NCBI GenBank assembly: GCA_007375595.1
Contig: VMEP01000001.1
Span: 415,184-479,183 of the forward strand
From: Parcubacteria group bacterium LiPW_30
GTDB lineage: Bacteria; Patescibacteriota; Minisyncoccia; Phycocordibacterales; VMEP01
Direction: 5' to 3'
Length of the DNA: 64,000 nt
The position numbers were made by a program, and so were the translations under genes. Shown in pieces: positions 15,160 to 38,355 of this stretch (its first letter is position 1; each line of letters opens with the position of its first letter). Under the pieces are notes generated by a model, which did no database searches, had not been told where the DNA came from, and was given only the letters and a program-made list of their open reading frames with translations.

Positions 15160-15177
15160 AATTCTGTAGATGTATAA

Positions 15178-15206: not shown

Positions 15207-15240
15207 TTTTAAAAAAAGATTTTCAGCTTATGTTAATATC

Positions 15241-16209: not shown

Positions 16210-16234
16210 AAAGTAAAACGACGGAGGGTTCATT

Positions 16235-16762: not shown

Positions 16763-16796
16763 AGCCAGATGTTCTTGTTGTTCTTGTGGAGAAAAG

Positions 16797-16836
16797 AAAC
16801 GGGGTTGCGCTAGTCGTACCCCGTTTTGTTTTTTTA
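16797..16836 (+). terminator. rho-independent terminator
   Basis: aaacggggttgcgctagtcgtaccccgttttgttttttt. Confidence 0.7.
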
Positions 16837-16896
16837 ATTAGAAAAATAAAAAGGTGTATAAGTCTATATTAGATTAACAATTTTTTTGTTATAATT

Positions 16897-19289: not shown

Positions 19290-19476
19290 TTCACAAAAGT
19301 ATTTATATTTCTAGTATTTTATTGCGTGGTTTTCGTTGTGTTGTTGATAGTAATGTTTTTTTGGGCGAACACCTTAAAAATAAAAAGGTGCATAAGTGGT
19401 GTTGTGATAAATTTTTGAAGTTATAGAATGAAGAGAGGAATTACCTATAACCTATAAAAAAGAGAGGAGCGACATT

Positions 19477-19905
19477 ATGCATACTGTGCGTAGGTCGGAA
19501 GAGGTGAAGTTCTTTGCCAGAGTCGAACGTCGCCGAGAAAGAATAATCGACTGTGTCGCCATTGTCACAGTCGTTAGGTCCCAGTACGGAATTCACACCG
19601 AGGTTGATGTCGTCTTATATCGCCTCAACCGGAGAGAAGTTCGTTTTGGAGGCAAAGAGACGTTCGAGTTGGTACGCTTTTTGCCACAGGACAAAGAGTT
19701 AGCTTTTAATTTCTTCCCACATGGACCACCGTTTTTGAACAGCGGTCCGGCGTGGAAGGAAACCACTGGCTGGCTTGCCCCTGTAATTGATTCGTACAGG
19801 ACAATTTATGACCCTGGTTTGGTGATAGTAGAAGAGTATCCTCAAAAAATACTACCCACACCTTTTAGGCCGAGTGCATGTCCAGATCTTCGCGTTTTAC
19901 GTTGA
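19477..19905 (+). CDS. hypothetical protein (GC-rich islet)
   Basis: ORF within the 19.47-20.94 kb segment of ~55-58% GC. No motif. Confidence 0.4.
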   Translation: MHTVRRSEEVKFFARVERRRERIIDCVAIVTVVRSQYGIHTEVDVVLYRLNRREVRFGGKETFELVRFLPQDKELAFNFFPHGPPFLNSGPAWKETTGWLAPVIDSYRTIYDPGLVIVEEYPQKILPTPFRPSACPDLRVLR

Positions 19906-20030
19906 AGACCCCAATTTTGTTTGCCGAGTTAATCGGTTAGCAGGGTTGGGGCTTTTTGTTTACAACTTTTGTATGTTGTGTTAGTATTTTTGCGGGAATG
20001 TTCCCATAATGAAAAAGAAGGAAGCTATTG

Positions 20031-20534
20031 ATGAAAAATCGTACAGTAGCAACGAACTCACTTTCCGTGACGCCAGCGGTGATGTTCGACCTCGAAAAGA
20101 GGATTGTGGCGTACATGAAGGGGGCCGAATGGCGGAAACTCATCCACCCGAATATCGGAGAAGATTTCTTTGTTCCGATGTGGAGGAAGGGGAAGGACGT
20201 CCATGGCGGTTTCGGCAAAAACGGGTTCATCGAAATCGAGAAGAATCCCGTTTTCGGGAAAAAGGACATTGTCCGCGTCGTCGCACTCAAGCAGGCGGTC
20301 GCGAACAGCATGGACCCGTCGATCTCCACCTTGGGCGGGAAGAAAGATATCGTTCAGGTCATCAAGGACTGGTCGCTTATCTCGATTCCCGATTCGGCCA
20401 AGATCAAGGTGATCGAGCACCGCGCTGAATGTGTCAAAGACAGCGCGAAGCGGGCGAAGTTGCCGTTGTCGGACCGCTCCGTTGCGTACAGTTCGCACGG
20501 TGGCACCTCCACCTCGGCGGGGATTACGGCTTAG
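20031..20534 (+). CDS. hypothetical protein (GC-rich islet)
   Basis: aagaaggaag RBS 8 nt upstream of ATG. This is one of several overlapping long ORFs in all frames caused by the high GC. This frame has the most protein-like composition and the RBS. Confidence 0.4.
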   Translation: MKNRTVATNSLSVTPAVMFDLEKRIVAYMKGAEWRKLIHPNIGEDFFVPMWRKGKDVHGGFGKNGFIEIEKNPVFGKKDIVRVVALKQAVANSMDPSISTLGGKKDIVQVIKDWSLISIPDSAKIKVIEHRAECVKDSAKRAKLPLSDRSVAYSSHGGTSTSAGITA

Positions 20535-20678
20535 CTTTCGAGCTTTAGCCGATCATTGGTCCGTCTCATCTTCTAGGTGAGGCGGGCCATTTCATTGCTT
20601 GCGCATATAATTGTTTTTGGTTAGTATATGCGCTTGCCGAAGTTCAACAGTAGTACAACCAGAAGAGGAGAAGCACAG

Positions 20679-20867
20679 ATGCATCAACAAGGTTCGGGTT
20701 CATCGCGCAGCTTCAATGCCCGTCGCGCGAACTATTTCGCGCGTCAGGGGACGCAAGCACAGCCGTTGTCGGGTGGAGCAGGGGTCGCCGCAAATGATCC
20801 CAAAGCCACTTCCGGCGAAGAAGAAATCGTCGTCGATTCCAAGGAGTCGTCGGCCAAAAAGCAATAA
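20679..20867 (+). CDS. small hypothetical protein (62 aa; GC-rich islet)
   Basis: gaggag RBS precedes the ATG. Low-complexity S/G/A-rich product. Followed by hairpin ccggccgtaggccgg. Confidence 0.3.
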   Translation: MHQQGSGSSRSFNARRANYFARQGTQAQPLSGGAGVAANDPKATSGEEEIVVDSKESSAKKQ

Positions 20868-20971
20868 CCGGCCGTAGGCCGGCAACAGGTCCGCAAATCG
20901 TCCTTCGACGAAGAGCGGGCCTTTTTCATTTGTCGTGGCGACCTGATATAATAATTTTTAACCAATAGATA

Positions 20972-22042
20972 ATGAAAAATTCTACTGAAAATAAGGCGAT
21001 GGAAAATGTCGCTTTCTATCGGAAATATCGTCCGCAGAAATTCGCCGATGTTTTAGGACAGGAGCACGTTATTTCGGTTATTGAAAATTCTCTCAAATCA
21101 GAAAGCATGGTGCACGCCTATCTTTTTGCGGGCTCGAGGGGCACGGGAAAAACATCTGTTGCTAGAATTCTTGCGCGCGAGCTCGGCACTTCCACAAACG
21201 ACCTATATGAAATAGACGCCGCTTCAAATCGTGGTATTGATGATGTTCGCGCGCTAAAAGAGTCGGTGCAGTCGCTTCCTTTTGATTCAAAATATAAAGT
21301 TTATATCATCGACGAAGTGCATATGCTCACCAAAGAAGCGTTTAACGCGCTTTTGAAAACTCTTGAAGAGCCACCTAAATATGTAATTTTTATTTTAGCG
21401 ACGACCGAAATTGAAAAATTGCCAGAGACCGTGGTGTCGCGTTGCCAGGTTTTTCAATTTAAAAAACCATCAATTGAAACATTGCGTGGGGTGATAGAAA
21501 AAATTGTTAAATCCGAAGGATATAAAATAGAGAAGTCGGCAGGGGAATTGATTGCGCTTTTGGGGGAAGGTTCATTTCGTGATACACAAGGAATACTTCA
21601 GAAAATAGTTGGGCTATCAAGCGACAAAGAAATTACTCGCGCAGAAGTTGAGAAAATAACCGGCGCGCCAAAAACAGAACTCGTTCGAGATTTTATTTCC
21701 GCGATTGCGACACACGATTTAGAACGCGGGCTTTCCGCCGTGGGCAACACGGGAAAAGAAAATCGCGATATGAAGGTATATATGAAGCTTGTTTTACGAC
21801 AGTTGCGCGCAGCGCTTTTGCTTAAATACGCGCCGGCAGGGGCGGGGAGTTTGCTTTCAGATTTCGACGAAGATGAAAAGAAATTTTTAAACACGCTCAT
21901 TAAAGAAAACGGGAAGAATATTACCTCAGGCGTATTAATAGAATTGCTCACCGCCTATCAGCTTCTCGACTATTCATATATTCCCGAACTTCCGCTAGAA
22001 CTTGCCCTGATTAAGATTGTCGGGCAAAATGACGCAAGTTAG
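20972..22042 (+). CDS. dnaX: DNA polymerase III subunit gamma/tau (short form)
   Basis: YRPQKFADVLGQEHV..AYLFAGSRGTGKTSVARILA..IIDEVHML..LKTLEEPP: clamp-loader AAA+ motifs. Start possibly at Met-10 (20999). Confidence 0.85.
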   Translation: MKNSTENKAMENVAFYRKYRPQKFADVLGQEHVISVIENSLKSESMVHAYLFAGSRGTGKTSVARILARELGTSTNDLYEIDAASNRGIDDVRALKESVQSLPFDSKYKVYIIDEVHMLTKEAFNALLKTLEEPPKYVIFILATTEIEKLPETVVSRCQVFQFKKPSIETLRGVIEKIVKSEGYKIEKSAGELIALLGEGSFRDTQGILQKIVGLSSDKEITRAEVEKITGAPKTELVRDFISAIATHDLERGLSAVGNTGKENRDMKVYMKLVLRQLRAALLLKYAPAGAGSLLSDFDEDEKKFLNTLIKENGKNITSGVLIELLTAYQLLDYSYIPELPLELALIKIVGQNDAS

Positions 22043-22064
22043 TTTAGTTTCGCGGGAAATACAT

Positions 22065-22135
22065 TGCCGGTTCGTCTAATGGTAGGACACCGCCCTTTGA
22101 AGGCGGGTATTGGGGTTCGAGTCCCTGACCGGCAG
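22065..22135 (+). tRNA. tRNA-Gln (TTG)
   Basis: TGCCGGTTCGTCTAATGGTAGGACACCGCCCTTTGAAGGCGGGTATTGGGGTTCGAGTCCCTGACCGGCAG. U1-A72 pair is typical of bacterial tRNA-Gln. Anticodon loop CTTTGAA, discriminator G. Followed by a T-run. Confidence 0.8.
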
Positions 22136-22202
22136 TTTTTGAGCGTAGTTCGAGAAGTGTTGTGTTTATATTAAACTCTAATCTGATATAATTAAGAAAA
22201 TT

Positions 22203-23027
22203 ATGTTAGTTACCAATAAAACAAAAATTCTTTCCCCTGTTAAACTAGCACCATATTTTCAAGAGGATAATTTTGTTCTATACAATAGCGACTCAATTAT
22301 TTTACTGAATCAATTACCAGAAAGTTCAGTAGATATGATATTTGCGGATCCTCCATACAATCTTTCGAATGACGGTTTTAGCGTACATGCTGGGCGAATG
22401 GTAAGTGTTAATAAAGGCGATTGGGATAAAAGTAAAGGATTCCAAGACGATTATGCCTTCCACTATCGTTGGATGGAAGCTTGTAGGCGAGTTCTTAAGC
22501 CAAACGGCACACTTTGGGTAAGCGGTACTTATCACTCAATTTACCAATGTGGACATGCCCTTCAATCACTCAGTTATCATATTTTGAATGATATAAGTTG
22601 GTTTAAACCAAACGCTTCACCGAATTTGAGCTGTAGATTTTTTACGGCAAGCCACGAGACACTTATTTGGGCGAGGAAAGAAAAAAAGGCAAAACATAAT
22701 TTTAACTATGATTTAATGAAAAACGGGGAATGGCCTGAGGATAAATTAAAGAAACCAGGTCTTCAAATGAGATCCGTTTGGTCTATGGGGACTCCTCGCC
22801 CCGAAGAGAAAAAATATGGTAAGCACCCAACACAAAAACCTCTAGATTTGCTCAAAAGAATAATTTTAGCAAGCACAAACAAAGGAGATGTTGTTTTAGA
22901 TCCGTTTACAGGTAGTTCTACTACCGGGATTGCGGCGGTGATGTACGAGAGAAAATTTATTGGAGTAGATCTTGAAAAAAAGTACCTTGATTTATCTGTT
23001 AAAAGATTTAATGATTTAAAAAAATGA
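22203..23027 (+). CDS. DNA methyltransferase, beta class (DPPY motif; N6-adenine or N4-cytosine)
   Basis: Motif IV IFADPPYNL precedes motif I VVLDPFTGSSTTG (the beta-class permutation). HPTQKP is also present. Confidence 0.85.
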   Translation: MLVTNKTKILSPVKLAPYFQEDNFVLYNSDSIILLNQLPESSVDMIFADPPYNLSNDGFSVHAGRMVSVNKGDWDKSKGFQDDYAFHYRWMEACRRVLKPNGTLWVSGTYHSIYQCGHALQSLSYHILNDISWFKPNASPNLSCRFFTASHETLIWARKEKKAKHNFNYDLMKNGEWPEDKLKKPGLQMRSVWSMGTPRPEEKKYGKHPTQKPLDLLKRIILASTNKGDVVLDPFTGSSTTGIAAVMYERKFIGVDLEKKYLDLSVKRFNDLKK

Positions 23028-23548
23028 TTAACAAAGGAAAAGGGGGAGGTAATACAATAACAGGACTTAATTTTGAAAAGGAAAAAGATATTCTTTCTCT
23101 TCTTAAAACTAAGAAAGGATATAGTGTTAAAGGAACAGCTATCTTTTATAACGGGAAGGAAGTTGCGAGGAACTATAAGAAAAATGCTCTATATAAATTT
23201 CTAGAATCTGAGAAGATAGATTACAAGAAAATTCTTTCTAAAAAACTTCTCCCCGATGAAGCTTTATATGTAATTGTTAATAACACCCTATTTATTATAG
23301 AGCTTAAGTTTCAGAAAGTAGCTGGGTCAGTCGATGAAAAATTACAGACATGTGATTTCAAAAGAAAACAGTATGCAAAATTGATGGCACCATTGAATAT
23401 AGAAGTTGAATATATCTATGTTTTAAGCGATTGGTTTAAAAAACCAGAATATAAAGATGTGCGAGATTATATAATTTCCGTAGGATGTCAGTATTATTTT
23501 GATTATCTTCCTCTACAAAAACTTGGGTTGCCTGTTCCACAAGATTAA
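23024..23548 (+). CDS. putative Type II restriction endonuclease (PD-ExK)
   Basis: Start overlaps the MTase stop (ATGA). PD..(E)xK signature LPDEALYVIVNNTLFIIELKFQK. 174 aa, otherwise novel. Confidence 0.5.
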   Translation: MINKGKGGGNTITGLNFEKEKDILSLLKTKKGYSVKGTAIFYNGKEVARNYKKNALYKFLESEKIDYKKILSKKLLPDEALYVIVNNTLFIIELKFQKVAGSVDEKLQTCDFKRKQYAKLMAPLNIEVEYIYVLSDWFKKPEYKDVRDYIISVGCQYYFDYLPLQKLGLPVPQD

Positions 23549-23574
23549 ATTTATTTTTTACAATCTTGGACGGA

Positions 23575-23615
23575 CAGTCTGTTTGAGATGGGTTCAGACT
23601 CTGAAGAAAATCGAA
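23575..23615 (+). promoter_or_regulatory. conserved upstream box (copy E): cagtctgtttgagatgggttcagactctgaagaaaatcgaa
   Basis: Homologous to 24852-24888 (tcagtttgagataagttcggactccgaagaacgtat). Both lie 5-15 nt before a start codon. It shares the YTCNGARGAAcgtcg core with the boxes at 24115 and 25813. Confidence 0.4.
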
Positions 23616-23619
23616 AAAC

Positions 23620-24105
23620 ATGGCGCAAATAATCAAAAAAGTATTTCATTGGCTTGGAACATTCCTTTGGAAGGATAAAACTTTAGCAATTATGGGTATT
23701 GTAATTGGGGTACTCGGCATTTATTTAGCTATAGATGCAAATAAAAGAACGGAAAAAGCTGAGGTTTTGCAAAAAATATCAGAGAAAAGCTATTTCGAGA
23801 CGACCTATAAGAAGATTTTCTTCAGTATTCCAATAGGAAATGGAATAGAAGATTTTAAAAAATTACCTAAAGAAACAGTAAATTCAATTCTGAATGACGC
23901 ACTCAGCGACATAGAATCGCAAATGAATAATAAATATCTTATTTCTAATACCGACTGCTTTAATAGTTGGAAGAGTTTTCAAGAATTTTTATATTTAGCC
24001 ATCAGATCTCCGGAAACTTTTGATTCTATGGGACCAGAACATAGCATCGCAAAGAACTATTACGCAAAATTGGATCCGCTATTGAATTATTGCCATAGTC
24101 TATGA
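23620..24105 (+). CDS. hypothetical membrane-anchored protein
   Basis: One TM helix (LAIMGIVIGVLGIYLAI). No motif. Confidence 0.5.
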   Translation: MAQIIKKVFHWLGTFLWKDKTLAIMGIVIGVLGIYLAIDANKRTEKAEVLQKISEKSYFETTYKKIFFSIPIGNGIEDFKKLPKETVNSILNDALSDIESQMNNKYLISNTDCFNSWKSFQEFLYLAIRSPETFDSMGPEHSIAKNYYAKLDPLLNYCHSL

Positions 24106-24153
24106 TTTTACCTATTCTGAGGAACGTCGGAGGGGCGGAATAAAAGTAATCAA

Positions 24154-24198
24154 AAAAGCCTTGTGGAGTTTGGTGGTATAATTTACGAGACCGAGGAG
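24154..24198 (+). promoter_or_regulatory. conserved promoter-like module P (copy A) with extended -10 TGGTATAAT
   Basis: aaaagccttgtggagtttggtggTATAATttacgagaccgaggag, preceded at fixed 26-nt spacing by box ttctgaggaacgtcgga (24115-24131). Confidence 0.5.
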
Positions 24199-24275
24199 AT
24201 CATCTTAAAACGACAACAGGCAATAGGAGGCCTTCGAGATTCGAGAGGAGATTCTAGTCATAAGTTTGTGTATAA

Positions 24276-24821
24276 TTGTCTATTATGGCAATCAAAAAAA
24301 CATCAGAGATTGGTAGTAAAGTAATCCGCTCTCGATCAAAAGAAGTTGAAAAAATAACTTCTTTGAGAGTTAAGAAAATAATAGTTGATCTCGTGGATAC
24401 TATGAGACATGTGAATTTGGTTGGTATGGCGGCACCCCAAATTGGAATAGGAAGTAGAATTTTTGTTACTGAAATTAGGAAAACAATAACACGAAAAAAT
24501 ATTTCTAAACCTGACCCACTTAAGGTTTTTATCAACCCCGAAATAACTAAGACATCAAAGAAACTTGTTGATGGATATGAGGGTTGCGGAAGCGTCGCCT
24601 CGGGGGGATTATTTGGAATCGTGAGAAGACCAGAAACTGTTTCCGTTCGAGCTTTTGATGAAACAGGTGAAGAATTTGAGTTAGAGACTTCTGGGTTGTT
24701 AGCAAGAATTATTCAACATGAGATTGACCATCTTGATGGAATTTGTTTTATTGATAAGGTTACAGACACTAAAAAATTGTTAGGTCGTCAAGAATATATC
24801 AAAATGGGAAGAAAAAAGTAG
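24276..24821 (+). CDS. def: peptide deformylase
   Basis: All three PDF motifs: GMAAPQIG, EGCGS, HEIDHLDG. Confidence 0.9.
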   Translation: MSIMAIKKTSEIGSKVIRSRSKEVEKITSLRVKKIIVDLVDTMRHVNLVGMAAPQIGIGSRIFVTEIRKTITRKNISKPDPLKVFINPEITKTSKKLVDGYEGCGSVASGGLFGIVRRPETVSVRAFDETGEEFELETSGLLARIIQHEIDHLDGICFIDKVTDTKKLLGRQEYIKMGRKK

Positions 24822-24851
24822 GCCGGACTTTTTTTAGAGAAAAGAATCTAA

Positions 24852-24888
24852 TCAGTTTGAGATAAGTTCGGACTCCGAAGAACGTATA
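24852..24888 (+). promoter_or_regulatory. conserved upstream box (copy F)
   Basis: See copy E. Follows the def terminator ggccggacttttttt. Confidence 0.4.
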
Positions 24889-24892
24889 TTTT

Positions 24893-25795
24893 ATGGAACT
24901 AAATCTTGGTTACAGAAACAAAATACTTATTTTAGGCGCGGGTGCGTCTAAAGACTATGGGCTACCAATCTGGAAAGAGTTGGATTCTTTGATAAAGGAG
25001 AGACTGAAAGATGGTGGAGAAAATCAATATTCACGCGCAAAGGATGTTTTGGCTTGGCTAGATAAGGTGGGAGAAAAAAACGAATATAAAACTATTGATG
25101 AATGCATTGAAAAGGAATCAGTAACAGGAATCTATCATTCAGATGGAGATAGTGTGGAAAACGATCTATTCTCGTCAGTCAAAGATATCTTCAACGAAGT
25201 TTATAAAGAAAATAACGAAGGTTGGATAACAAGGTTGAGTAATAAAATTTTACATAACTCTGAAAACCGATTGGAAGAGAGAGTGGCTTTCATAAATTAT
25301 AATTACGATAATGTTTTAGAGAAAAACCTCTTAAGATTTGGTCATCTGCCAGGGAAACATTTGCGTCTCAATAATAAACCTAGACTAGACCAGTTATCGT
25401 CGGTGCAGGTACCTGTTTTGTATGCTCATGGGAATCTTTATAAGAAATCTGAGGTACCCTTAGGGTCCCATACGGATAGATATTACAAAACCATGAAGAG
25501 TGGTTTCGTTGGGTATATAGATGTTGTTTCGTGTTATGAAAGCCACAACCATACAGTTAATCACGAGTTAGATGCCGACGAACTTGAAATGTATATTTTA
25601 GGATTGGGCGGGGGTCTTAAATTCAATCTTAGTAAACTTAATATTTCCAAGAAAGTGTCGCAAATTTCTGTGACAATTAGTAATGCTCATGACGATGAAG
25701 AAATTATAAAATTTTTAAGTACAAAATTTAAAGTTCCAGTAGAGAAAATTTTTATATATAGATCTTGTGCTGAGTTAATTGATACATGCTTCTAG
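24893..25795 (+). CDS. SIR2-like (SIR2_2 family) protein, stand-alone; putative NAD+-depleting defense effector
   Basis: N-terminus KILILGAGASKDYGLPIWKELDSLI matches the SIR2_2 signature (lFlGAGvS...GlPsW..L) used by ThsA/DSR-type antiphage proteins. 300 aa, no other domain recognised. Confidence 0.65.
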   Translation: MELNLGYRNKILILGAGASKDYGLPIWKELDSLIKERLKDGGENQYSRAKDVLAWLDKVGEKNEYKTIDECIEKESVTGIYHSDGDSVENDLFSSVKDIFNEVYKENNEGWITRLSNKILHNSENRLEERVAFINYNYDNVLEKNLLRFGHLPGKHLRLNNKPRLDQLSSVQVPVLYAHGNLYKKSEVPLGSHTDRYYKTMKSGFVGYIDVVSCYESHNHTVNHELDADELEMYILGLGGGLKFNLSKLNISKKVSQISVTISNAHDDEEIIKFLSTKFKVPVEKIFIYRSCAELIDTCF

Positions 25796-25851
25796 TAATA
25801 AATCGACTCTCATTCAGAGGAACGTCGAAATGGTACGATTAGAGATGTCAG

Positions 25852-25897
25852 AAAAGCCTTGTGGGGCTTGATGGGCAAATATACGAGACCGAAGAGG
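25852..25897 (+). promoter_or_regulatory. conserved promoter-like module P (copy B)
   Basis: aaaagccttgtggggcttgatgggcaaatatacgagaccgaagagg, preceded at 26-nt spacing by box ttcagaggaacgtcgaa (25813-25829). Confidence 0.45.
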
Positions 25898-26005
25898 CCA
25901 GTTTTTGAGCTGTTTTCTAGGGGTTATTCGTGCGAGGAATGATAAAGTAGTACTATAAAGCGACAAAGTTGTGTGTTTCGTTTGATAAACTTTTGGAATA
26001 AATTT

Positions 26006-26287
26006 ATGAACAATAAAGAAGCTAAAGCACGAATCAGAATAAACAGTCTACTCCAACAGTCTGGCTGGAGGTTTTTTGATGACGAAAACAGCAAGGCAAA
26101 CATTGCTCTAAATAAACTTTCAAAAAAATCAGTTGATGAATTAGGAAACGATTTTGAAAAAACAAAGAACAATTTTACCGATTTTCTTCTTCTTGATGAA
26201 AAAGGTTTCCCCTATGTTGTGTTTGCTGCAAAATCAAGCGCCGAACTGTTCGAGTTAAAAATAAAATCAAAAATCGATGAATTATGA
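26006..26287 (+). CDS. small HsdR_N-like (type I restriction R-subunit N-terminal nuclease-like) domain protein, catalytic Glu apparently replaced
   Basis: EAKARIRINSLLQQSGW and DFLLLDEKGFPYVVFAAK align to the EcoKI HsdR N-terminal motifs ESRFLIDAQLRKAGW and DYVLFVGLKPIAVVEAK. The ExK glutamate aligns to Ala. Start taken at the ATG at 26006. Confidence 0.5.
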   Translation: MNNKEAKARIRINSLLQQSGWRFFDDENSKANIALNKLSKKSVDELGNDFEKTKNNFTDFLLLDEKGFPYVVFAAKSSAELFELKIKSKIDEL

Positions 26288-26300
26288 GGAGAATAATTAT

Positions 26301-26483
26301 ATGAGCAGTAACATTATCAAACAACATTTAGCAGAGATGGTAAAAGACAAGAAACTGGATGCCGAGTTCATCCAGCTTTTGTCTGGTTCGAACGACAACA
26401 ACGAGGAAGGCAGAGATACTGCTATAAAGATTCTGTTTGCGATAAAAAAACGCTATGTTGAAAGTAAAAAAGATAACTCTTAG
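26301..26483 (+). CDS. small hypothetical protein (60 aa) inside the putative defense operon
   Basis: GAGGAG RBS 9 nt upstream of ATG at 26301. Overlaps the next gene by 29 nt. Helical, charged. Confidence 0.35.
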   Translation: MSSNIIKQHLAEMVKDKKLDAEFIQLLSGSNDNNEEGRDTAIKILFAIKKRYVESKKDNS

Positions 26484-28902
26484 TGGCTTCCGAGGGATTC
26501 TCAAACCTCAAGACCTAATCCTTACAGAAAAAGGAGACTCAAATCCGCACTCACTTGTTTTGTACGGACTCAATAGTTCTGGTAAAACTTCTTTCGTTGA
26601 CGGCATTGAGTGGTTTTTATCCGAAGAGAATAAGGTTGAATGGCTCACGCGTGAAGATGCCGAAGAGAAAGCCTACCCCCATTTAGCAGCCGACTCCAAA
26701 AAGGTTGAGAGCTTTGTAGAGTTGCAGTTCAATGACACAGACAAAAAGTTAGATTCTCTTCGCAAGACATACAGTCACAAAAAGATAACGCAACCCACAC
26801 TATCGTCCGAGAGTGATTTTGAAAACGTTTATAAGGTGTTCGTGATAAAGCCTTATCTTCGTTATCTGGAAGTTATAGATTTCGTTTATAACCACACGGG
26901 GCTAAAGAAGTATCAAAGGCTCGCGAATTGGATGGGATTTGAAAGTGAGCAGGCATTTCAAGAAAAGCTCGCCCTAAAGATACTCCCAGAGCTGAAAAGA
27001 AGAAAAGAAGAGTTATCAAATACCGTCGAAACTCTCGGCAGTCATCTATCGCGACTGACAGGAAGCAGCGACATATCGGAAATAGAGATTTTGAGAGTAA
27101 GTAATGGGATTTTAGCCTTGCATAAAATCGCCGAAAAGAAGAACGTTAGTGAGCTTATGGATTACATTCCAGAGTTTGCAAAGCTCCGTGCTATCTCCTC
27201 TGTAGGAATCACGGTAGATAAACTTACCCAAGCAGAAACCAATATTAGCTTGTTTGCTATAAATAAGACACTTCTTGAATCTCTTGCGGATGCAAAGAAA
27301 AAAGTTGATGACTTTAGTAAAGAACTAAAGAAAATTGAACAGATTAATGTCATCGGACTCTACGATCAGGCTTTAGAGGTTTTGAATAAGCAAACAGAGT
27401 CGGCAACTGTTTGTCCTGTATGCGGCACCAGTTGGAAGAAAGATGAGCTGGTAAAACATATCCAAGACGAACTGGGGTTACTCACAAAGGTAAAAGAAGA
27501 CAAAGAAGCGCTTGAGCTAACAGTTAGTCGACTCAAATCGGCAGTAAGAACTGAAATAACCGCAACAGAGAGACTGGTTTCAAAATACGATGACGTTCAA
27601 AAAATAATTCCAGTTCTTACATACGAAAAGGTAAAATCGTATAAAGATGCTCTGTCCATAATGGAGAGCGGTTGGCTAACTAAACCTCTGGGCAGTAATA
27701 CTGAAATAACACTCACACAGGAACTTCGCGACCAGAGTGAAGAAGAGCAGCAACAAATACTAAAGACCATCACTGCTGAAAAGACGAAGATTCAGCCATC
27801 AGAGAAAGACATCAAGATTGCAGAGGATATTGAAAAACTGACTCAAATACGGACGAAGCTCATAGAAGTCAAAGATGCCGAAGCTGAACGGGAGTTTACG
27901 GAAAAGGAGATTGAAAAGTTCATTGCAGTAAGCAATAAGCTCGTCACTTTGATTCAAGAGAACATCAAGTCTCGATTCAATGAGATTTCCGAGCGCATTG
28001 GCAAATACTTTTCAATTTTGAGGAACGATAAAGATATAAAAAACATCGAGATTGTCTTGAACGAAGAAAAAGGACGTGCGGCGGGGCGTTCAGCAGAGAT
28101 ACAGCTCCACTACTACGATGTGACCGTAAAGCCCGCCTATAAAGTTTTGAGTGAGTCATTGTTAAACAGTTTGGGGTTGGCGGTGTATTTCACCTGCATC
28201 AAGCAGTTCAATCAGGACTGCAAGTTTATAGTGCTTGACGATATAATGAACAGCCTCGACATAGATAAAAGAGACACACTACTTGATTTGATTGAGCAGG
28301 AGTTCGGTGATTATCAGGTTATTCTTTTCACACACGATTATTATTGGTTTCAAAAGATATTGAGACGATTTCCAAAATGGATACGAAAGAAAATAAAAAG
28401 TTGGGGCTACGAAACAGGCGCCCTTATTGATGTTGCTGCAACAACTCAAGGAGAGATTGAGGAATGTCTGGCGGATGCAACCAAGATTGAGGATGCTGGC
28501 TGGAAACTCGGAAGATATGTTGAGAGCACGCTAAACGAGTTTTGCGAGAATCTGTGGGCAAAAGTTCGCTACCGCTATACAAAGAACGACCCGCCCGCAA
28601 TGGAAGAGCTATTTGATGCACTGTGCGGGCGCCTAAAAGACAAGCTGAACGAACACCCAGTAGTAAAACAAATACAGGAGGCTAAAAAATATGAACCTAT
28701 ACTGCGCAATTTTGTGTCTCACGCAAGAACAAATAGTGGCTCTACGGTTTCGCCTCAAGAGATAAAACGAGCAGCGAAAGAATGGTTCAAACTTGAGAGT
28801 CAACTTTGGTGTAACGACTGTAGTCAATTCGTTGAATATCATAAAACCAAATCGTCAATCGAATGTCACTGCGGGAAGTTGAAACTGGAGAAAGTAAAAT
28901 GA
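26455..28902 (+). CDS. Rad50/SbcC/RloC-like ABC ATPase with coiled-coil zinc hook and C-terminal extra domain
   Basis: N-terminal ITLSGFRGI..LYGLNSSGKTSFVDGIEW (Walker A). Roughly 500 aa of coiled coil containing a CxxC hook (TVCPVCGTSW, ~res 320). Walker B/D-loop FIVLDDIMNSLD. H-loop ILFTHD. Then a ~190-aa C-terminal domain ending in a C-x2-C..C-x-C ribbon. Confidence 0.8.
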   Translation: MLKVKKITLSGFRGILKPQDLILTEKGDSNPHSLVLYGLNSSGKTSFVDGIEWFLSEENKVEWLTREDAEEKAYPHLAADSKKVESFVELQFNDTDKKLDSLRKTYSHKKITQPTLSSESDFENVYKVFVIKPYLRYLEVIDFVYNHTGLKKYQRLANWMGFESEQAFQEKLALKILPELKRRKEELSNTVETLGSHLSRLTGSSDISEIEILRVSNGILALHKIAEKKNVSELMDYIPEFAKLRAISSVGITVDKLTQAETNISLFAINKTLLESLADAKKKVDDFSKELKKIEQINVIGLYDQALEVLNKQTESATVCPVCGTSWKKDELVKHIQDELGLLTKVKEDKEALELTVSRLKSAVRTEITATERLVSKYDDVQKIIPVLTYEKVKSYKDALSIMESGWLTKPLGSNTEITLTQELRDQSEEEQQQILKTITAEKTKIQPSEKDIKIAEDIEKLTQIRTKLIEVKDAEAEREFTEKEIEKFIAVSNKLVTLIQENIKSRFNEISERIGKYFSILRNDKDIKNIEIVLNEEKGRAAGRSAEIQLHYYDVTVKPAYKVLSESLLNSLGLAVYFTCIKQFNQDCKFIVLDDIMNSLDIDKRDTLLDLIEQEFGDYQVILFTHDYYWFQKILRRFPKWIRKKIKSWGYETGALIDVAATTQGEIEECLADATKIEDAGWKLGRYVESTLNEFCENLWAKVRYRYTKNDPPAMEELFDALCGRLKDKLNEHPVVKQIQEAKKYEPILRNFVSHARTNSGSTVSPQEIKRAAKEWFKLESQLWCNDCSQFVEYHKTKSSIECHCGKLKLEKVK

Positions 28903-29378
28903 CCTGGTATCAAAAGACGTTAAAGAAATACGGGAAAGAAATCCTGACAGGGGCAATCTTTTCTGTTATCTGTACACTCGCATTCCTACTCTGGATTTAT
29001 GGAATGGGTAAGACGTTCACATGGACAGATATCAGTCCAATAGATCCGCCTTCAATCTTTGTCAGATTTCTCTATAGCGCTCTTACATTTGTCACCTTAG
29101 GGCGAATTTTGTATGTCACAGGCTTTTACAAAGCCTTGTATCAAATCATTGGCGATTGGCAGTCATTCAAGGAGGCGAAAGTAATTATTTGGTTATTACT
29201 TATGGGCGCTATGTTCTTCGTGATTGTTCCTACTATCGTAGATATACTCAATGGCATTCTCTCAGTCGGATATAACTTGTTCGCTTTGATACTTTACGCA
29301 TTTCCACCAGTAGGCGTCTCATTAATCTTTTTTGTATTTTACTTCTATTTCAAAAGGAAACTCCGACCGATATCCTAA
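28899..29378 (+). CDS. 4-TM membrane protein translationally coupled to the ABC ATPase
   Basis: ATG overlaps the ATPase TGA (ATGA). Four predicted TM helices. No known domain. Confidence 0.6.
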   Translation: MTWYQKTLKKYGKEILTGAIFSVICTLAFLLWIYGMGKTFTWTDISPIDPPSIFVRFLYSALTFVTLGRILYVTGFYKALYQIIGDWQSFKEAKVIIWLLLMGAMFFVIVPTIVDILNGILSVGYNLFALILYAFPPVGVSLIFFVFYFYFKRKLRPIS

Positions 29379-29412
29379 GGGGACTGTTATTTTTATCACT
29401 TTTTATAAAACT

Positions 29413-29874
29413 ATGAAATATTTTGCTTACGGATCAAATATGCTGCAGGGTCGTCTTGAAGACCAAAAGAATGTTCGAGACGAAAGCATTGGCTCGGTTC
29501 AGGACATAGGAACAGCTAGTCTGCCAGATTATCGATTGGTTTTTAATAAAATCGGTAAGAAGGATGGAATAAGTGGTAAGGCGAATATAGTTCAAGAGCA
29601 AGGCGCAGAGACACTAGGAGTTGTGTATGAATTGTCCAATGAGCAAATCAATCTTTTGGATAGTATTGAGGGAAAGGGCTACAAAAGAATTCCAGTTGGT
29701 ATTAATTTCAATGGCGAACAGCTTGAGATTGATACTTATGTTGCTCAAGCTAATAGTGTTCAAGAAGGACTATCACCAACAAGAGAGTATTTGAACTTTG
29801 TAATTCAAGGCGCTGTAATTCATGGCTTTCCAGAAGCGTACGTTTCGTTCCTCAGATCTATCAAAGTTCAATAA
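29413..29874 (+). CDS. gamma-glutamyl cyclotransferase-like (AIG2/GGCT fold) protein
   Basis: MKYFAYGSNM..RL N-terminal signature (YGSN motif) and catalytic Glu candidate (GVVYEL). 35 nt downstream of the membrane-protein gene. Confidence 0.65.
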   Translation: MKYFAYGSNMLQGRLEDQKNVRDESIGSVQDIGTASLPDYRLVFNKIGKKDGISGKANIVQEQGAETLGVVYELSNEQINLLDSIEGKGYKRIPVGINFNGEQLEIDTYVAQANSVQEGLSPTREYLNFVIQGAVIHGFPEAYVSFLRSIKVQ

Positions 29875-29963
29875 TTAGGGGCGCACGAGACGCGTCGTTC
29901 TGATAAACTAAGATTAGTAAAGGCTATTACAAGTAACATCAAAACGATAAAAGAAAAGTGATC

Positions 29964-30009
29964 AAAAACCTTGTGGGGCTTGATGGTATAATTTATGAGA
30001 CCGAGGGGG
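29964..30009 (+). promoter_or_regulatory. conserved promoter-like module P (copy C)
   Basis: aaaaaccttgtggggcttgatggTATAATttatgagaccgaggggg. A fourth partial copy, aaaaagccttgtgtgg, lies at 30558-30573. Confidence 0.5.
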
Positions 30010-30035
30010 TCAGTAAATTATCGTAGAATAATATA

Positions 30036-30482
30036 ATGAATGAAATAACACTTCACAATCAATGGGTCGTTAAAGCTCCGATAGATGACGTATTCAGAAT
30101 AATGACCGACTTTGAAAAATTTCCAGAACATTTTCCAAAGGTTGCCGAGGTGGTAGAGATTAAAAAGCGGGAAGGAGACTATCTCGAGATAGAAGCAATA
30201 GTAAGATCCTTCGGTAAAAAATTTCAGGTGAAAATGAAGACTCGAATTCTTCCGGGGAAAGGATTCATCTCAGATAATGATAGCTATCAGTTTGGGACTT
30301 CTGGACATGAAGAGGTGTTGTTATCTCCACACGCCGAAGGAACTTTGATTGACTATACCTATCAAGTCACTATTCATAAAAAATGGCTACGTATAGTTGC
30401 TGTGCCACTATTACGCTGGTATTCGATGAAATACTGGGAAAAAGCAGTTATTCAGGAGCTTAAAAAGATTCTGGAGAAATAA
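30036..30482 (+). CDS. SRPBCC (START/Bet v1/polyketide-cyclase-like) family protein
   Basis: W.V.APIDDVFRIMTDFEKFPEHFP N-terminal signature of the polyketide_cyc2 / SRPBCC fold. Confidence 0.65.
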   Translation: MNEITLHNQWVVKAPIDDVFRIMTDFEKFPEHFPKVAEVVEIKKREGDYLEIEAIVRSFGKKFQVKMKTRILPGKGFISDNDSYQFGTSGHEEVLLSPHAEGTLIDYTYQVTIHKKWLRIVAVPLLRWYSMKYWEKAVIQELKKILEK

Positions 30483-30590
30483 AAATGGGTGCAACCATAA
30501 CTACAAATATGTAGGTTTCAAAGAGTGGTAAAATAAAAATTTTAGAATAAAAATAATAAAAAGCCTTGTGTGGTTTTTGAAAAATAAAGT

Positions 30591-30842
30591 ATGGTTAAAA
30601 AAGAAATTGCTACTGGTACGATACATAAATTACCTGATGATTTAAAAAAGGCGCTTCTTTCCGCACCGCAGTCGCTAGTAACATGGGAAGAAACCACACC
30701 GCTTGCACGCAATGAATGGATTTGTTGGGTTACATCGGGTAAAAAAGCGGAGACGAGAAATATTCGTATTGAAAAAGCTCTTTCAAAGCTTAAGGGTGGA
30801 ATGCGTAGACCTTGTTGCTGGGCGGGCTGTACTCATCGCTAG
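30591..30842 (+). CDS. YdeI/OmpD-associated family protein
   Basis: LPDDLKKAL...P.....W..TTPLARNEWICWVTSGKKAETRNIRIEKAL matches the YdeI_OmpD-associated pattern (..rrey..WI..AKK.ETR..RI). Confidence 0.6.
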   Translation: MVKKEIATGTIHKLPDDLKKALLSAPQSLVTWEETTPLARNEWICWVTSGKKAETRNIRIEKALSKLKGGMRRPCCWAGCTHR

Positions 30843-30917
30843 AATTAACACTCGTAATTTGTGATAAAGAAGTTGGTTATCTAACATTTTGGTTATAACT
30901 TTCGTTATAACGTCTAT

Positions 30918-31238
30918 ATGAAGAAATCATTTCTATACGCATCATCGGCTATTTTATATATTGTCGGTTTAGTTTCTCTTGTGAATCTTGCGGTTCATGC
31001 TCTACAAGATAAACCAGAAACTATACTCATTCCGATGACCATGTTGAGTTTGTTTGTATTATCGGCATCTATCATGGGATTTTTGTTTTTATCTGAACCG
31101 CTAAGTCTGCTTATAGAAAACAAAAAGCACGAGGCTGTTGTTTGCTTTGCCCAAATTGTCGGATTCTTTGCCTGTTTTGTCGCCCTTTTTATACTTTTAC
31201 TTTTCTTCAGTCCAATTCCTTTCCCGCAGGGTTTTTAG
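30918..31238 (+). CDS. small membrane protein (3 TM), hypothetical
   Basis: Hydrophobic 106-aa ORF. Confidence 0.45.
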   Translation: MKKSFLYASSAILYIVGLVSLVNLAVHALQDKPETILIPMTMLSLFVLSASIMGFLFLSEPLSLLIENKKHEAVVCFAQIVGFFACFVALFILLLFFSPIPFPQGF

Positions 31239-31276
31239 AAAGTACATCAGACTAGAACTTTGATATAATAGTTTTA

Positions 31277-31411
31277 ATGAAAGTATATATTGCTGCGCCG
31301 TTATTCAACGAGTTTGAAAAAAATCGCAATGTCGAAATAAGTGAGTATTTGAATAGTGTAGGCATTTATACTTATTTACCCCAGAAAGACGAAAAAATCT
31401 ATATTTTTTGA
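31277..31411 (+). pseudogene. N-terminal remnant (44 codons) of a nucleoside 2-deoxyribosyltransferase-family gene
   Basis: MKVYIAAPLFNEFEKNRNVEISEYLNSVGIYTYLPQKDE matches the Rcl/NDT N-terminus (YlAGPlF..e......l...L...g..v.lPq.d). The ORF stops after 44 codons, whereas full-length proteins are ~140-160 aa. Confidence 0.45.
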
Positions 31412-31459
31412 TAAAATGTAAAAAGTATTAAAATAAGTAATAATCTTTAATGTATAAAA

Positions 31460-32152
31460 ATGTTTAATTTTACTTCAAAAATTCAAAAAGTTATTGCGAT
31501 TAACGACCTTAATGTGCGTATCGGTGAACCTTCAACAACAGCGAGTTCGTCTCCATTCCCGAAAGGAACAATTTTCGACGTTATAGGGTTTATTTCTAAT
31601 GGAGACACCGTACGAGAAAATTCTGTTTGGTATAAGTGTGATAATGGTAGTTATCTTTGGTCTGGTAACGTCAAAGTGATTGACGATGTACAAAAAATAT
31701 TAACTTCCCCTCTCCCGTATTTAGTTTGTACTCAAAAGTTTGGGGAACGCCCTGAGGTATATAAAAATTACGGATCTCCAAAGGGGCATAATGGACTTGA
31801 TTTTCGCACGTGGGTAAATAATGATCCGCATAATTTCAAGCAAGATGTTTTCTCTGTTTTAGATGGTAAAGTAACTGAGGCAGATTTTGATCAGGTATTT
31901 AAGGGGAACTTTATTCGTATAAAACATGAGAAATATGAATCAATTTACCTTCATTTATCTCGCCTAGATGTGAAAAGTGGAGATCTAGTAAAAGCAGGAC
32001 AACAGATTGGAAAGGCAGGGAACACGGGGTCAGTTAGCGAAGCCCCACATTTACATTTTGGAGTTCGCCCAATTAACTTTGATAAAAATAATGGCTATAT
32101 GGGGTATATAGATCCTAGTCTTCTTTTTGTCGATGAAATAAAATATGTGTAA
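31460..32152 (+). CDS. M23 family metallopeptidase with N-terminal SH3b-like domain (peptidoglycan hydrolase)
   Basis: HNGLDF...H.H (HLHFGVRP) LytM/M23 motifs. N-terminal SH3b-like GTIFDVIGFISNGDTVRENSVWYKCDNGSYLW. Confidence 0.85.
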   Translation: MFNFTSKIQKVIAINDLNVRIGEPSTTASSSPFPKGTIFDVIGFISNGDTVRENSVWYKCDNGSYLWSGNVKVIDDVQKILTSPLPYLVCTQKFGERPEVYKNYGSPKGHNGLDFRTWVNNDPHNFKQDVFSVLDGKVTEADFDQVFKGNFIRIKHEKYESIYLHLSRLDVKSGDLVKAGQQIGKAGNTGSVSEAPHLHFGVRPINFDKNNGYMGYIDPSLLFVDEIKYV

Positions 32153-32699: not shown

Positions 32700-34619
32700 A
32701 TGGAACACGACCACTCAAATCATCACAAACAACCAGAATCACACAATAAACACGACGGGCATAATACAGTAGATTTTTTAAAGAAGTTTTGGATCTCTTT
32801 AGTTATTACCATACCCATCTTTTTTTATTCTGAGATGGCAAAAGAGGTTTTTAATATTCGTGGTCCCGAGTTTGATGGCTGGCAATATGTTCTGCTTGTT
32901 CTCGGATCAATTATTTATTTTTATTGTGGTTTAACATTTCTTCAAGGTGCTTATCGTGAATTAAAAGAACGTTTGCCTGGGATGATGGTACTTATTTTTA
33001 TCGCCGTTACATCTGCGTATGCGTATAGTGTCTTCTCAATATTTTTTGGGGGAATGCATGATTTGATGTTTGAGCTTGCTTCACTTATCACAATTATGCT
33101 CCTTGGTCATTGGATAGAGATGAAGTCGGTTATGGGCGCTCAGGGGGCTCTTAAAGAACTATCAAAGCTTTTGCCTGATAAAGCAGAAGTTTTTAGTGGT
33201 AACACAATTATGGTCGTCCCTCTTTCTCAACTTAAGGTTGGTGATATCGTGTTAATCAGACCTGGTTCTAAAGTTCCCACTGATGGAAAAGTTATTGAAG
33301 GTCAGTCAAGCGTAAACGAAGCTATTTTAACAGGAGAATCAAAACCTGTTCATAAAAATATCGGTAGTGCAGTTATTGCTGGTTCAATCAACGGCGAAGG
33401 AAGTCTTAAAGTGGAGGTTGGTAGTATTGGAGAAAAAACATTTCTCGCGGGGGTAATGCGGTTGGTCGCAGAAGCACAGGCTTCAAAATCACGTCTACAA
33501 ATACTTTCGGATCGAGCTGCTTTCTATCTTACTATAATCGCTATTGTTGGAGGTGGAATTACTTTTGTCGCGTGGCTAGCAGTTGGGGCTGGGACTATAA
33601 CTGCGGTAGAGCGTTTAGTTGCTGTTTTGGTTATTACTTGTCCTCACGCACTCGGATTGGCTGTTCCATTAGTAGCGTCAATTTCTACAACAATGGCGGC
33701 GCGAAATGGCCTTTTGGTTCGTGAACGAATAGCTCTTGAAGAAGCTCGAAAGATTGACGTGGTGTTATTTGATAAAACAGGAACACTCACGAAAGGTGAA
33801 TTTGGCGTTGTTTCCGTGACTTCTGATGAAGTGCTCGCGCTTGCCGCTGCCGTTGAAACGCACTCCGAACATCCGATTGGCAAGGCAATTTTAAAAGAAG
33901 CCCAAAAAAGAAATCTTCAGATTGGAGAGATGCGTGATTTTAAAACAATCGCTGGAATAGGAGCGGAAGCAAACGTTGATGGAGACACAGTGTTTGTTGG
34001 GCACCGTGGTGGCCGAGATATAGTTGTTGAAAAAAACGGTGAACAAGTGGGTGCGATAATAGTTGCCGATGTTGTTCGCCCCGAAGCAAAAGAAGCAGTA
34101 TTAAAACTTAAACAAGCTGGACTTTCTGTTTCAATGATTACTGGAGATTCAGAGGAGGTTGCAAAAGAGGTTGCAGAAGAACTTGGTATTGATGAATATT
34201 TTGCACGAGTTCATCCGGGAGATAAATCTGAAAAAGTTAAGTTGCTTCAAAGCAACGGTCGCAAGGTCGCGATGGTTGGTGACGGGGTAAACGATGCGCC
34301 AGCTCTTGTTCAAGCAAATCTTGGAATTGCTATTGGAGCAGGAACGAATGTTGCTATTGAATCTGCGGGAATAATTCTTGTAAAAAATGATCCGCGAGAT
34401 ATTTCAAAAATATTTAATTTATCAAGACTTACTTATAATAAAATGGTTCAAAATCTATTTTGGGCAACTGGTTATAATGTGGTTGCGATTCCGCTTGCGG
34501 CGGGAGCGCTAGCTTCAAACGGCATTATATTGCAACCATGGCTCGCAGCAGTGTTTATGTCTGTCTCTACAGTTATCGTGGCTATTAACGCTATGTTTCT
34601 TCGCAACAAAATATTATAA
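32700..34619 (+). CDS. P1B-type heavy-metal (copper, CopB-like) transporting ATPase
   Basis: His-rich N-terminus MEHDHSNHHKQPESHNKHDGHN. CPH metal-binding motif in TM6 (ITCPHAL). DKTGTLT phosphorylation site, GDGVNDAPAL hinge. Confidence 0.9.
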   Translation: MEHDHSNHHKQPESHNKHDGHNTVDFLKKFWISLVITIPIFFYSEMAKEVFNIRGPEFDGWQYVLLVLGSIIYFYCGLTFLQGAYRELKERLPGMMVLIFIAVTSAYAYSVFSIFFGGMHDLMFELASLITIMLLGHWIEMKSVMGAQGALKELSKLLPDKAEVFSGNTIMVVPLSQLKVGDIVLIRPGSKVPTDGKVIEGQSSVNEAILTGESKPVHKNIGSAVIAGSINGEGSLKVEVGSIGEKTFLAGVMRLVAEAQASKSRLQILSDRAAFYLTIIAIVGGGITFVAWLAVGAGTITAVERLVAVLVITCPHALGLAVPLVASISTTMAARNGLLVRERIALEEARKIDVVLFDKTGTLTKGEFGVVSVTSDEVLALAAAVETHSEHPIGKAILKEAQKRNLQIGEMRDFKTIAGIGAEANVDGDTVFVGHRGGRDIVVEKNGEQVGAIIVADVVRPEAKEAVLKLKQAGLSVSMITGDSEEVAKEVAEELGIDEYFARVHPGDKSEKVKLLQSNGRKVAMVGDGVNDAPALVQANLGIAIGAGTNVAIESAGIILVKNDPRDISKIFNLSRLTYNKMVQNLFWATGYNVVAIPLAAGALASNGIILQPWLAAVFMSVSTVIVAINAMFLRNKIL

Positions 34620-35046: not shown

Positions 35047-35148
35047 GGTGGCTACTCCTAAAAAGAACGAAACTGTTCGAAAAACACTTTACCACAACAT
35101 CAGAAATTTAAAATTATGAAGAATCCCGCCGAGTATCGGCGGGATGGT

Positions 35149-38207: not shown

Positions 38208-38355
38208 TTTTTGCAATAATTATTTGACATTATATTTTTGTCATGTAATATAGCCCAGTCGACCAATGGTGGTCGATTTCATTTGTTCCCAGGTGGGAGC
38301 ATTTGAATGTACATTCCGTTTCAATTCTTTCGTCAATTTTCTGGAGGTATTACCC

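Follow-up and report, generated by a model that had tools for sequence, protein, structure and literature searches.

Genomic islands that carry restriction-modification (R-M) systems have already been described in Patescibacteria (PMC12455944), and tRNA-adjacent genomic or defence islands are recognised by variable cargo beside the tRNA gene, an enrichment in R-M and abortive-infection-type genes, a lower GC content and a composition that differs between relatives. A second described system that matters here is RloC, in which ABC motifs are joined to a coiled coil bearing a CXXC hook and to a C-terminal anticodon nuclease (ACNase); in G. kaustophilus an hsdR relic borders the rloC gene (PMC2610378), and ABC-HEPN proteins are embedded in R-M loci (PMC3710099). 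Here we analysed a stretch of 64,000 nucleotides from the Parcubacteria group bacterium LiPW_30 (GenBank assembly GCA_007375595.1, contig VMEP01000001.1, positions 415,184 to 479,183 of the forward strand), called the window throughout, and focused on the DNA that follows the gene for tRNA-Gln (UUG) at 22064-22136 (+ strand; ARAGORN and Rfam, 57.7 bits), the left anchor of a variable region. The region shows all the above likenesses to tRNA-adjacent islands and is a known kind of object, namely a tRNA-anchored, integrase-less and degraded accessory/defence region, yet it differs in having neither an integrase, nor an att duplication of the tRNA end, nor a definable right edge, and in being put together from separate modules, with scars of deletions inside it. 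We consider it probable that the DNA 3' of tRNA-Gln forms a hotspot in the chromosome at which accessory and defence genes collect, one that took up several independent insertions and later lost DNA by deletion, and not a single element. Its three main contents would be an intact type II R-M pair, a stand-alone SIR2-like protein and the remains of a decayed R-M cassette, with the remaining genes (peptide deformylase, GGACT, SRPBCC, YdeI, M23 and membrane open reading frames, ORFs) presumably carried along as passengers.

The left edge at tRNA-Gln is well supported as a real hotspot boundary, with defence cargo recurring behind it in three genomes. Upstream of the tRNA gene, across a gap of 22 nt, lies dnaX (356 aa, 20972-22042), whose relatives are Paceibacterota-type Patescibacteria. 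In the closest relative available (L002/L003; L-numbers denote DNA stretches from relatives), dnaX is 94% identical in amino acids and 83% in nucleotides, tRNA-Gln is 100% identical, and nucleotide collinearity spans window positions 10916-22137 (~11 kb), stopping 2 nt past the tRNA gene. There L002 carries a 250-aa ORF and a type IV restriction enzyme (Mrr_N/Mrr_cat), and beyond the collinear block its contig has no match elsewhere in the 64-kb window. A scan of genome contigs with dnaX returned relatives of at most 58% identity only. The more distant stretches L004-L013 (dnaX 53-65% aa) retain the order dprA-serS-...-dus-...-dnaX-tRNA-Gln and have unrelated genes after the tRNA in each. The switch from housekeeping genes to cargo directly behind tRNA-Gln, as proposed by an earlier note on this DNA, is thus borne out by a sharp synteny break in the nearest relative, and the comparison of gene order which that note had called for gave the same picture, dus-dnaX-tRNA-Gln being kept and the genes after it differing each time. 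The defence cargo found at this position comprises the R-M pair of the window, the Mrr enzyme of L002 and an R-M pair in L009. The GC content of the genes at 22.2-32.7 kb, which is below that of the flanks (values below), also speaks for the hotspot.

One could object that there is no special hotspot, that gene order decays fast everywhere and that the break at the tRNA gene is coincidental. The P-type ATPase and other genes downstream of the region are indeed scattered or rearranged in L087 and L088, the GC content is heterogeneous along the entire window, and L002 also lacks window 16.2-19.5 kb. We regard this explanation as unlikely, however, because the block from dprA to tRNA-Gln persists down to 53% dnaX identity while the first gene after the tRNA changes in every relative, because defence cargo sits there in three genomes, and because the break falls within 2 nt of the tRNA end. 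Several observations nevertheless weigh against the hotspot as we read it. The absence of window 16235-19500 from L002/L003 means that variability extends beyond the tRNA-Gln slot; the closest relative covers only ~1.5 kb downstream of tRNA-Gln; the flank genes are also GC-heterogeneous (0.33-0.56); the right boundary was not placeable through P-type ATPase homologues in metagenome contigs, the nearest available one (L087) sharing no flank with the window; and the deformylase, the sole copy within the 64-kb window, may be the only one, in which case the region would hold an essential gene. The segment absent from L002/L003 encodes a 175-aa ORF, a 158-aa ORF and a 639-aa Gly_rich_2/PKD protein, at a GC content of 0.47-0.48.

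The hotspot reading also has to be set against that of a single degraded integrative element, i.e., a remnant of a prophage, an integrative and conjugative element or an integrative and mobilizable element, for which one would assume a single entry at tRNA-Gln and a later loss of integrase and att sites. Adjacency to the tRNA speaks for it, and so do the common orientation of the genes (every convincing gene from tRNA-Gln to 34.6 kb lies on the + strand) and the lower mean GC content of the genes at 22.2-32.7 kb (0.365 vs 0.421 in the flanks, Mann-Whitney p = 0.002). An endolysin-like M23 peptidase without signal peptide would suit such an element too, as would the ATPase cassette of L172 (see below), which adjoins Prim-Pol/PriCT and HTH_17 genes of the sort that integrative elements typically carry. 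On the other hand, family scans of all ORFs in 22.1-32.7 kb failed to detect a recombinase domain, as the earlier note had said, and the direct repeat of the tRNA 3' end for which it proposed a search was not found: the 21- and 24-nt ends, with up to 3 mismatches allowed, occur once in 64 kb. Moreover, the modules differ in their closest relatives and in their contexts elsewhere, their GC content ranges from 0.305 to 0.433, and viral contigs scanned with the SIR2 and ATPase profiles yielded no relatives of either. A single element therefore seems decidedly improbable to us. Judged from the sequence comparisons, the region is a mosaic whose modules each have a history of their own and in which at least one internal deletion of 4.7 kb occurred, and for these two reasons it does not look like one old integration. 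Accordingly, from the earlier wording of "an old, degraded integration or a hotspot" we retain the hotspot and, given two gene stubs, the degradation, and we drop the single old integration.

The first module behind tRNA-Gln is the type II R-M pair. A predicted beta-class N6/N4 DNA methyltransferase (MTase; 22203-23027, + strand) matches Pfam N6_N4_Mtase over its full length (2.5e-59) and PADLOC MTase_II (5.8e-99), and its nearest solved relative is CcrM (7.9e-57). Its gene overlaps by 4 nt that of a 174-aa PD-(D/E)xK nuclease (23024-23548, + strand), the presumed cognate restriction enzyme, for which the Pfam match is weak (PDDEXK_11, 5.8e-4) and no solved relative was found. Across 56 members of the nuclease family the residues P77-D78...E93-x-K95 are near-invariant, which together with the overlap and the MTase match upholds the overlapping MTase-endonuclease pair first described from the sequence. 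The epithet "novel" given to the endonuclease does not hold, since its family already numbers 815 representative clusters at E<=0.001. In composition the pair resembles HinfI/CcrM-like and DpnA-like systems, in which beta-class MTases accompany type II restriction endonucleases, in that a beta-class N6_N4 MTase gene overlaps that of a small PD-ExK nuclease. It differs from them through its relative in L009, where a 75%-identical MTase, located 1.6 kb after tRNA-Gln and exceeding the dnaX identity there (56%), is paired (L009 7513-8983) with an unrelated MutH/Sau3AI-like nuclease and not with the 174-aa PD-ExK protein. As the MTase is partnered with different nucleases in the window and in L009, its restriction partner has therefore been swapped. 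Hints at the specificity are indirect only and consist of the MutH-like partner of the L009 enzyme and of the depletion of GATC, which is scarcer relative to expectation than any other 4-mer palindrome of the window (90 observed vs 185 expected, ratio 0.49); GGCC (0.63) and GCNGC (0.62) are also under-represented there, and GANTC is not (1.19). The pair, being intact, would restrict unmethylated incoming DNA.

The second content is a SIR2-like protein of 300 aa (24893-25795, + strand), identified from its invariant motifs, an AlphaFold2 (AF2) model and Foldseek. Our search found 98 homologues, all of ~300 aa and all the named ones Patescibacterial, so that the family was seen only there in this search. 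The motifs GAGxS...GLPxW (G15-A-G17-x-S19), N137-Y-D139 and H179-G180 are invariant in 64 of the homologues. The AF2 model reached a pLDDT of 94.9, and its top ~30 PDB matches in Foldseek are SIR2 domains (probability ~0.9-1.0, TM 0.41-0.45), the best of them all belonging to defence SIR2 domains, i.e., SPARSA, FAM118B, SIR2-HerA, DSR2 and KomC. The SIR2 protein listed earlier among the cargo is consequently confirmed, with complete motifs and a SIR2 fold in the AF2 model. It shares the fold and the GAGxS / NxD / HG motifs with the defence SIR2 domains of ThsA, DSR2, SIR2-HerA, SPARSA and human FAM118B, but it differs in its length of 300 aa and its stand-alone nature, without a fused sensor or conserved partner, and the TM scores are only 0.41-0.45. 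By inference, it would deplete NAD+ when triggered.

The surroundings of the SIR2 homologues differ from genome to genome. In L167 the homologue (77% aa) stands right after a tRNA-Gln(CTG), ahead of the ATP synthase operon; in L168/L169 (73%) it belongs to an island that also encodes a serine recombinase, an MTase and CD-NTase/Cap15, a GGACT gene following directly; and in L170 (46%) it starts 2 nt past an EcoRI-like methylase and is followed by GmrSD/HNH (L170 6959-10010; also L171). A sensor or partner in the form of a neighbour conserved across L167, L168 and L170, or of a fused domain, was not found. In the L170 locus the SIR2 protein occupies the place of the restriction enzyme. The stretch L168 1-6020, with its large serine recombinase, N6_N4 MTase, CD_NTase_C protein and Cap15-like effector, amounts to a system like the cyclic-oligonucleotide-based antiphage signalling system (CBASS) in a genome of the Candidate Phyla Radiation (CPR).

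The third content follows the SIR2 gene. Here an 815-aa Rad50/SMC-like ABC ATPase (26455-28902, + strand; Pfam SMC_N and AAA_21; 100% identical to LiPW30_453) is preceded by a conserved 68-aa ORF (26277-26483, + strand) that overlaps its start, and is followed by a 159-aa multi-pass membrane protein (28899-29378, + strand) whose gene joins the ATPase stop in an ATGA overlap. Ahead of these genes lies a 93-aa stub (26006-26287, + strand), which consists of the N-terminus of an HSDR_N-helicase restriction subunit and the last codons of a methylase. The composition of the stub becomes clear from L172. Window 26015-26221 aligns to L172 1830-2045 (72% nt), where codons 1-72 of the helicase gene lie, and window 26247-28898 corresponds to L172 6793-9444; with L179, similarity sets in at window 26257, which falls ~40 nt short of the 3' end of the methylase gene there. 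Because these flanking window segments align to separated stretches of L172, ~4.7 kb comprising the body of res and all of mod have been deleted, with the junction at about 26221-26257, and the 93-aa ORF is, on this alignment, the scar. The cassette would once have read res-mod-small ORF-ATPase-membrane protein, as a type I/ISP-like R-M system, and the ATPase, having lost its cis partner here, would be either serviced in trans or heading for decay.

In other genomes, too, the small ORF accompanies the ATPase. Copies of the 68-aa ORF, 45-79% identical in amino acids, occupy the same position in L172, L175, L177, L179 and L181, and the ATPase homologues (60-89% aa) always carry an overlapping upstream ORF of 60-77 aa. 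A gene 54% identical to the 159-aa membrane protein stands at the same position in L179. The ATPase homologues are found at the 3' end of five different partner sets. In L172-L174 the set is made up of an HTH_17 gene, an HSDR_N-helicase (838 aa) and, as a fusion of 832 aa, N6_Mtase/Eco57I/Methylase_S; in L179 of an MTase-S fusion; in L175/L176 of a type III mod/res pair with DUF5655; in L177/L178 of a GHKL HATPase_c_3 protein with a 295-aa protein; and in L181/L182 of a 1517-aa superfamily 1 (SF1) helicase. Since such cassettes open with a small HTH_17 (excisionase/AlpA-like) gene (L172 1-1800, L175 1300-1482, L181 70-297) and the L172 cassette abuts a Prim-Pol/PriCT_1/AAA_25 primase, the evidence suggests that the ATPase cassettes travel on integrative elements.

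The SIR2 and ATPase genes stand close together, and Lamassu-Sir2 subtypes are known. This gives rise to the thought that the SIR2 protein (24893-25795) belongs together with the ATPase (26455-28902) in a single Lamassu (ABC-3C) system, the former acting as LmuA and the small ORFs between them as LmuC. The ATPase does find its best PADLOC match in LmuB (9.2e-25, model positions 26-604/611), with which it shares a Rad50/SMC-like ATPase with a coiled coil, and a SIR2-type effector is encoded 660 nt upstream on the same strand. The gene context of the homologues nevertheless led us to reject the pairing, to which we give very little chance: a SIR2 neighbour occurs in none of the five ATPase-homologue contexts, and such an ATPase in none of the three SIR2-homologue contexts. 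The DNA between the two genes is, furthermore, a restriction-gene stub and deletion scar, the scans gave no match to LmuC or middle-component families, and the ATPase has its own C-terminal RNxxxH domain. It differs from LmuB in lacking conserved LmuA and LmuC, in having an effector-like domain fused in cis and in having R-M or helicase genes as its conserved neighbours. Other ABC models in PADLOC (mad3, AbiLi and AriA) match it as well, and the LmuB match reflects the shared Rad50-like head.

We instead compare the ATPase with RloC and PrrC (PMC2610378, PMC3458546, PMC3710099). In 58 homologues Walker A, the Q-loop, the signature, Walker B and the H-loop are invariant (G38-K44, Q169, S566-E-S568, D595-D596, H627), and so is C320-P-x-C323 in the middle of the coiled-coil insert, a putative zinc hook; a PDB profile search retrieved SMC/Rad50 heads together with weak matches to Rad50 zinc hooks (1l8d and 6zff, E 0.03-0.06). 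In the C-terminal part R751 and H756 (LRNFVSH, RNxxSH) are likewise invariant in the 58 homologues, as are C786, C789 and C804 of a Zn ribbon, and E718, 38 residues before H756, is near-invariant; no R-x3-E occurs in this domain. A model of residues 640-815 (pLDDT 79.5) shows a helical bundle with a small ribbon. The likeness to RloC/PrrC thus consists of an ABC head split by a coiled coil with a central CxxC in a protein of ~800 aa; of a helical domain at the C-terminus in which an Arg and a His are conserved, with a Ser before the His; and of a linkage to type I/III R-M systems, for which rloC beside the hsdR relic is a precedent. The differences are the RNxxxH motif in place of the R-x3-E-x36-52-H triad, the extra C-terminal Zn ribbon, the 60-77-aa ORF that always precedes the ATPase and the membrane protein that sometimes follows it, partners that include a GHKL ATPase and an SF1 helicase, and a family mostly confined to Patescibacteria.

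The assignment of the C-terminal domain to HEPN is made from the invariant RNxxxH together with fold matches that are not significant, and three results count against it and against the kinship with RloC. The HEPN matches of the C-terminal model (YutE, HepT, 1wwp, 5yep, 4nqf and 2hsb) lead the Foldseek list, none being significant (best E 0.38); profile searches with the C-terminal domain alone returned nothing; and an hhalign comparison of the ATPase to an AAA_13 (RloC/PrrC-family) protein covers the ABC head only and not the C-terminal domain. The ATPase has no Pfam AAA_13 match either. For these reasons it is not filed here as an RloC, membership in that family being unsupported by AAA_13, by hhalign and by the C-terminal profile searches. 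By analogy of architecture and gene context, it might work like RloC/PrrC, a proposition to which we would give an even chance. Such an ATPase would be a second-line guard, as RloC and PrrC are the models for it: the Rad50-like head and the coiled coil with its zinc hook would respond to DNA ends or to the condition of a partner restriction complex, and this response would release the C-terminal RNxxxH RNase, shutting down translation. The ABC-ATPase module to which the earlier note pointed is real, and the reading as an orphaned, R-M-linked and RloC-like module suits it better than that of a self-contained system or of a partner to SIR2 in Lamassu.

We also put forward, as a tentative idea only, that the 60-77-aa ORF and the ~815-aa ATPase constitute an undescribed portable guard module, mostly Patescibacterial, which docks behind unrelated DNA-targeting systems (type ISP-like R-M, type III R-M, a GHKL/MORC-like ATPase and an SF1 helicase) and acts by RNase firing. 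If this were true, the module would fire when its partner systems are blocked or when DNA ends accumulate; it would be a functional analogue of RloC/PrrC with an origin separate from the AAA_13 family; and in the window it would have been caught just after the loss of its partner.

Short repeats may offer some clues to the order in which the modules arrived. The 15-nt motif TTGAGNNNRRTTCGR occurs at 22139-22153 (+ strand), starting 2 nt past tRNA-Gln, and again at 24857-24871 (+ strand), the exact left edge of the SIR2 block common to L167 and L168, with whose SIR2 blocks nucleotide similarity begins exactly at 24857. It is also found directly 3' of tRNA-Gln in L004 (12459-12473) and before SIR2 in L167 (1030-1044). 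The two window copies bracket a 2.7-kb segment with the R-M pair, a 161-aa ORF and the deformylase. Because TTGAGNNNRRTTCGR stands behind tRNA-Gln in L004 and ahead of SIR2 in L167, the ancestral order may have been tRNA-Gln-SIR2, into which the 2.7-kb segment would have been inserted later, and the motif itself may represent the scar of an insertion or a repeat of the att-like kind; its pattern was defined after seeing the sequences, so that any chance estimate is circular. A second case of possible nesting concerns the GGACT gene, which directly follows SIR2 in L168 (8001-9521) and L169 (2133-3653), while in the window the 3.6-kb ATPase cassette intervenes. The GGACT proteins of the window and of L168/L169 share only 33% identity, and the association of SIR2 with GGACT may stem from a link in function or from the two genes having once been neighbours.

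A further repeat of ~90 nt lies in intergenic DNA at 24114-24202 (ahead of the deformylase gene), 25812-25900 and 29920-30012, plus an incomplete fourth copy at 30558-30576, all on the + strand. Within the window it is confined to the island, each copy standing 60-130 nt upstream of a + strand gene, and one more copy follows tRNA-Gln in L004 (12736-12804; dnaX identity 65%). Its conserved cores, CCTTGTGGGGCTTGRTGG and TAYGAGACCGAGG, can pair in an imperfect 12-bp hairpin with one covarying pair. No Rfam family matched it. We also considered and rejected two identities for this repeat, a sigma-70 promoter (the consensus scan was negative and the -10-like hexamer is not conserved among the copies) and an integron attC site (by eye it has no R''/L''-L'/R' inverted-repeat architecture, and an integrase is absent).

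The remaining genes, all on the + strand, complete the inventory. Between the R-M pair and SIR2 lie the 161-aa ORF with an N-terminal membrane anchor (23620-24105; no match in Pfam, NCBIfam or PADLOC) and the peptide deformylase (24276-24821; Pfam 1.1e-45; NCBIfam 9.5e-43, above cut-off), which had earlier been called an extra copy and, as the sole one within the window, does not deserve that name. Beyond the ATPase cassette follow a GGACT/AIG2-like protein (29413-29874; Pfam AIG2_2 2.5e-12, GGACT 2.6e-11), an SRPBCC (polyketide cyclase-like) protein (30036-30482; Pfam 3.5e-6) and an 83-aa YdeI/OmdA-like protein (30591-30842; Pfam OmdA 1.6e-16), the last two as listed before, and then a 106-aa membrane protein without a family match (30918-31238). 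The truncated nucleoside 2-deoxyribosyltransferase proved to be a stub of 44 aa (31277-31411), matching the first third of the Pfam model (Nuc_deoxyrib_tr positions 1-38/117, E 0.0039, below cut-off). At 31460-32152 a peptidoglycan peptidase, in which no signal peptide was seen, carries the M23 domain attributed to it (Pfam Peptidase_M23 1.6e-22); the SH3b domain attributed along with it was not detected in Pfam even at E<=5, and the N-terminal 110 aa have no Pfam match.

In sum, tRNA-Gln and nearly all the genes listed in the earlier note were confirmed by ARAGORN, Rfam and family scans, and its description of the cargo as typical of mobile or defence islands applies, as far as defence goes, to the R-M pair, SIR2 and the ATPase; the deformylase, SRPBCC, YdeI and GGACT proteins are not defence-related and may or may not be accessory. 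The 93-aa stub, the 68-aa ORF, two membrane-protein ORFs including the 159-aa one, the GGACT/AIG2 gene and the intergenic repeat were absent from that list. The end it set for the island, at 32152, is arbitrary, with no demonstrable boundary there. Farther on, the P-type ATPase (window 32700-34619) may itself be mobile cargo. Its nearest available homologue, in L087 (82% aa), lies in a copper operon of the order csoR-ATPase-multicopper oxidase that shares that gene only, and in L088 a homologue (63%) is placed between serS and dus. L087 comes from a more distant organism, its other shared genes being only ~50% identical to the window. Some small genes past 32152 at 35116-35529, 38266-38676 and 39815-40396, a DUF5680 protein gene included, are high in GC (0.50-0.56 vs the window mean of 0.396) and are candidates for further DNA of foreign origin.

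Patescibacteria have tiny genomes and mostly lack CRISPR, and how they resist phages is an open question. What the present analysis adds is the demonstration of the mosaic, a mapped deletion that orphaned an RloC-like ATPase module, and two unannotated, motif-complete and mainly Patescibacterial families. The 300-aa SIR2 protein and the pair of small ORF and ATPase are concrete candidates for defence tests in the CPR. On our reading, even a tiny genome (a contig of ~680 kb) would keep a dedicated slot beside tRNA-Gln, in which defence modules are swapped in, nested and eroded.

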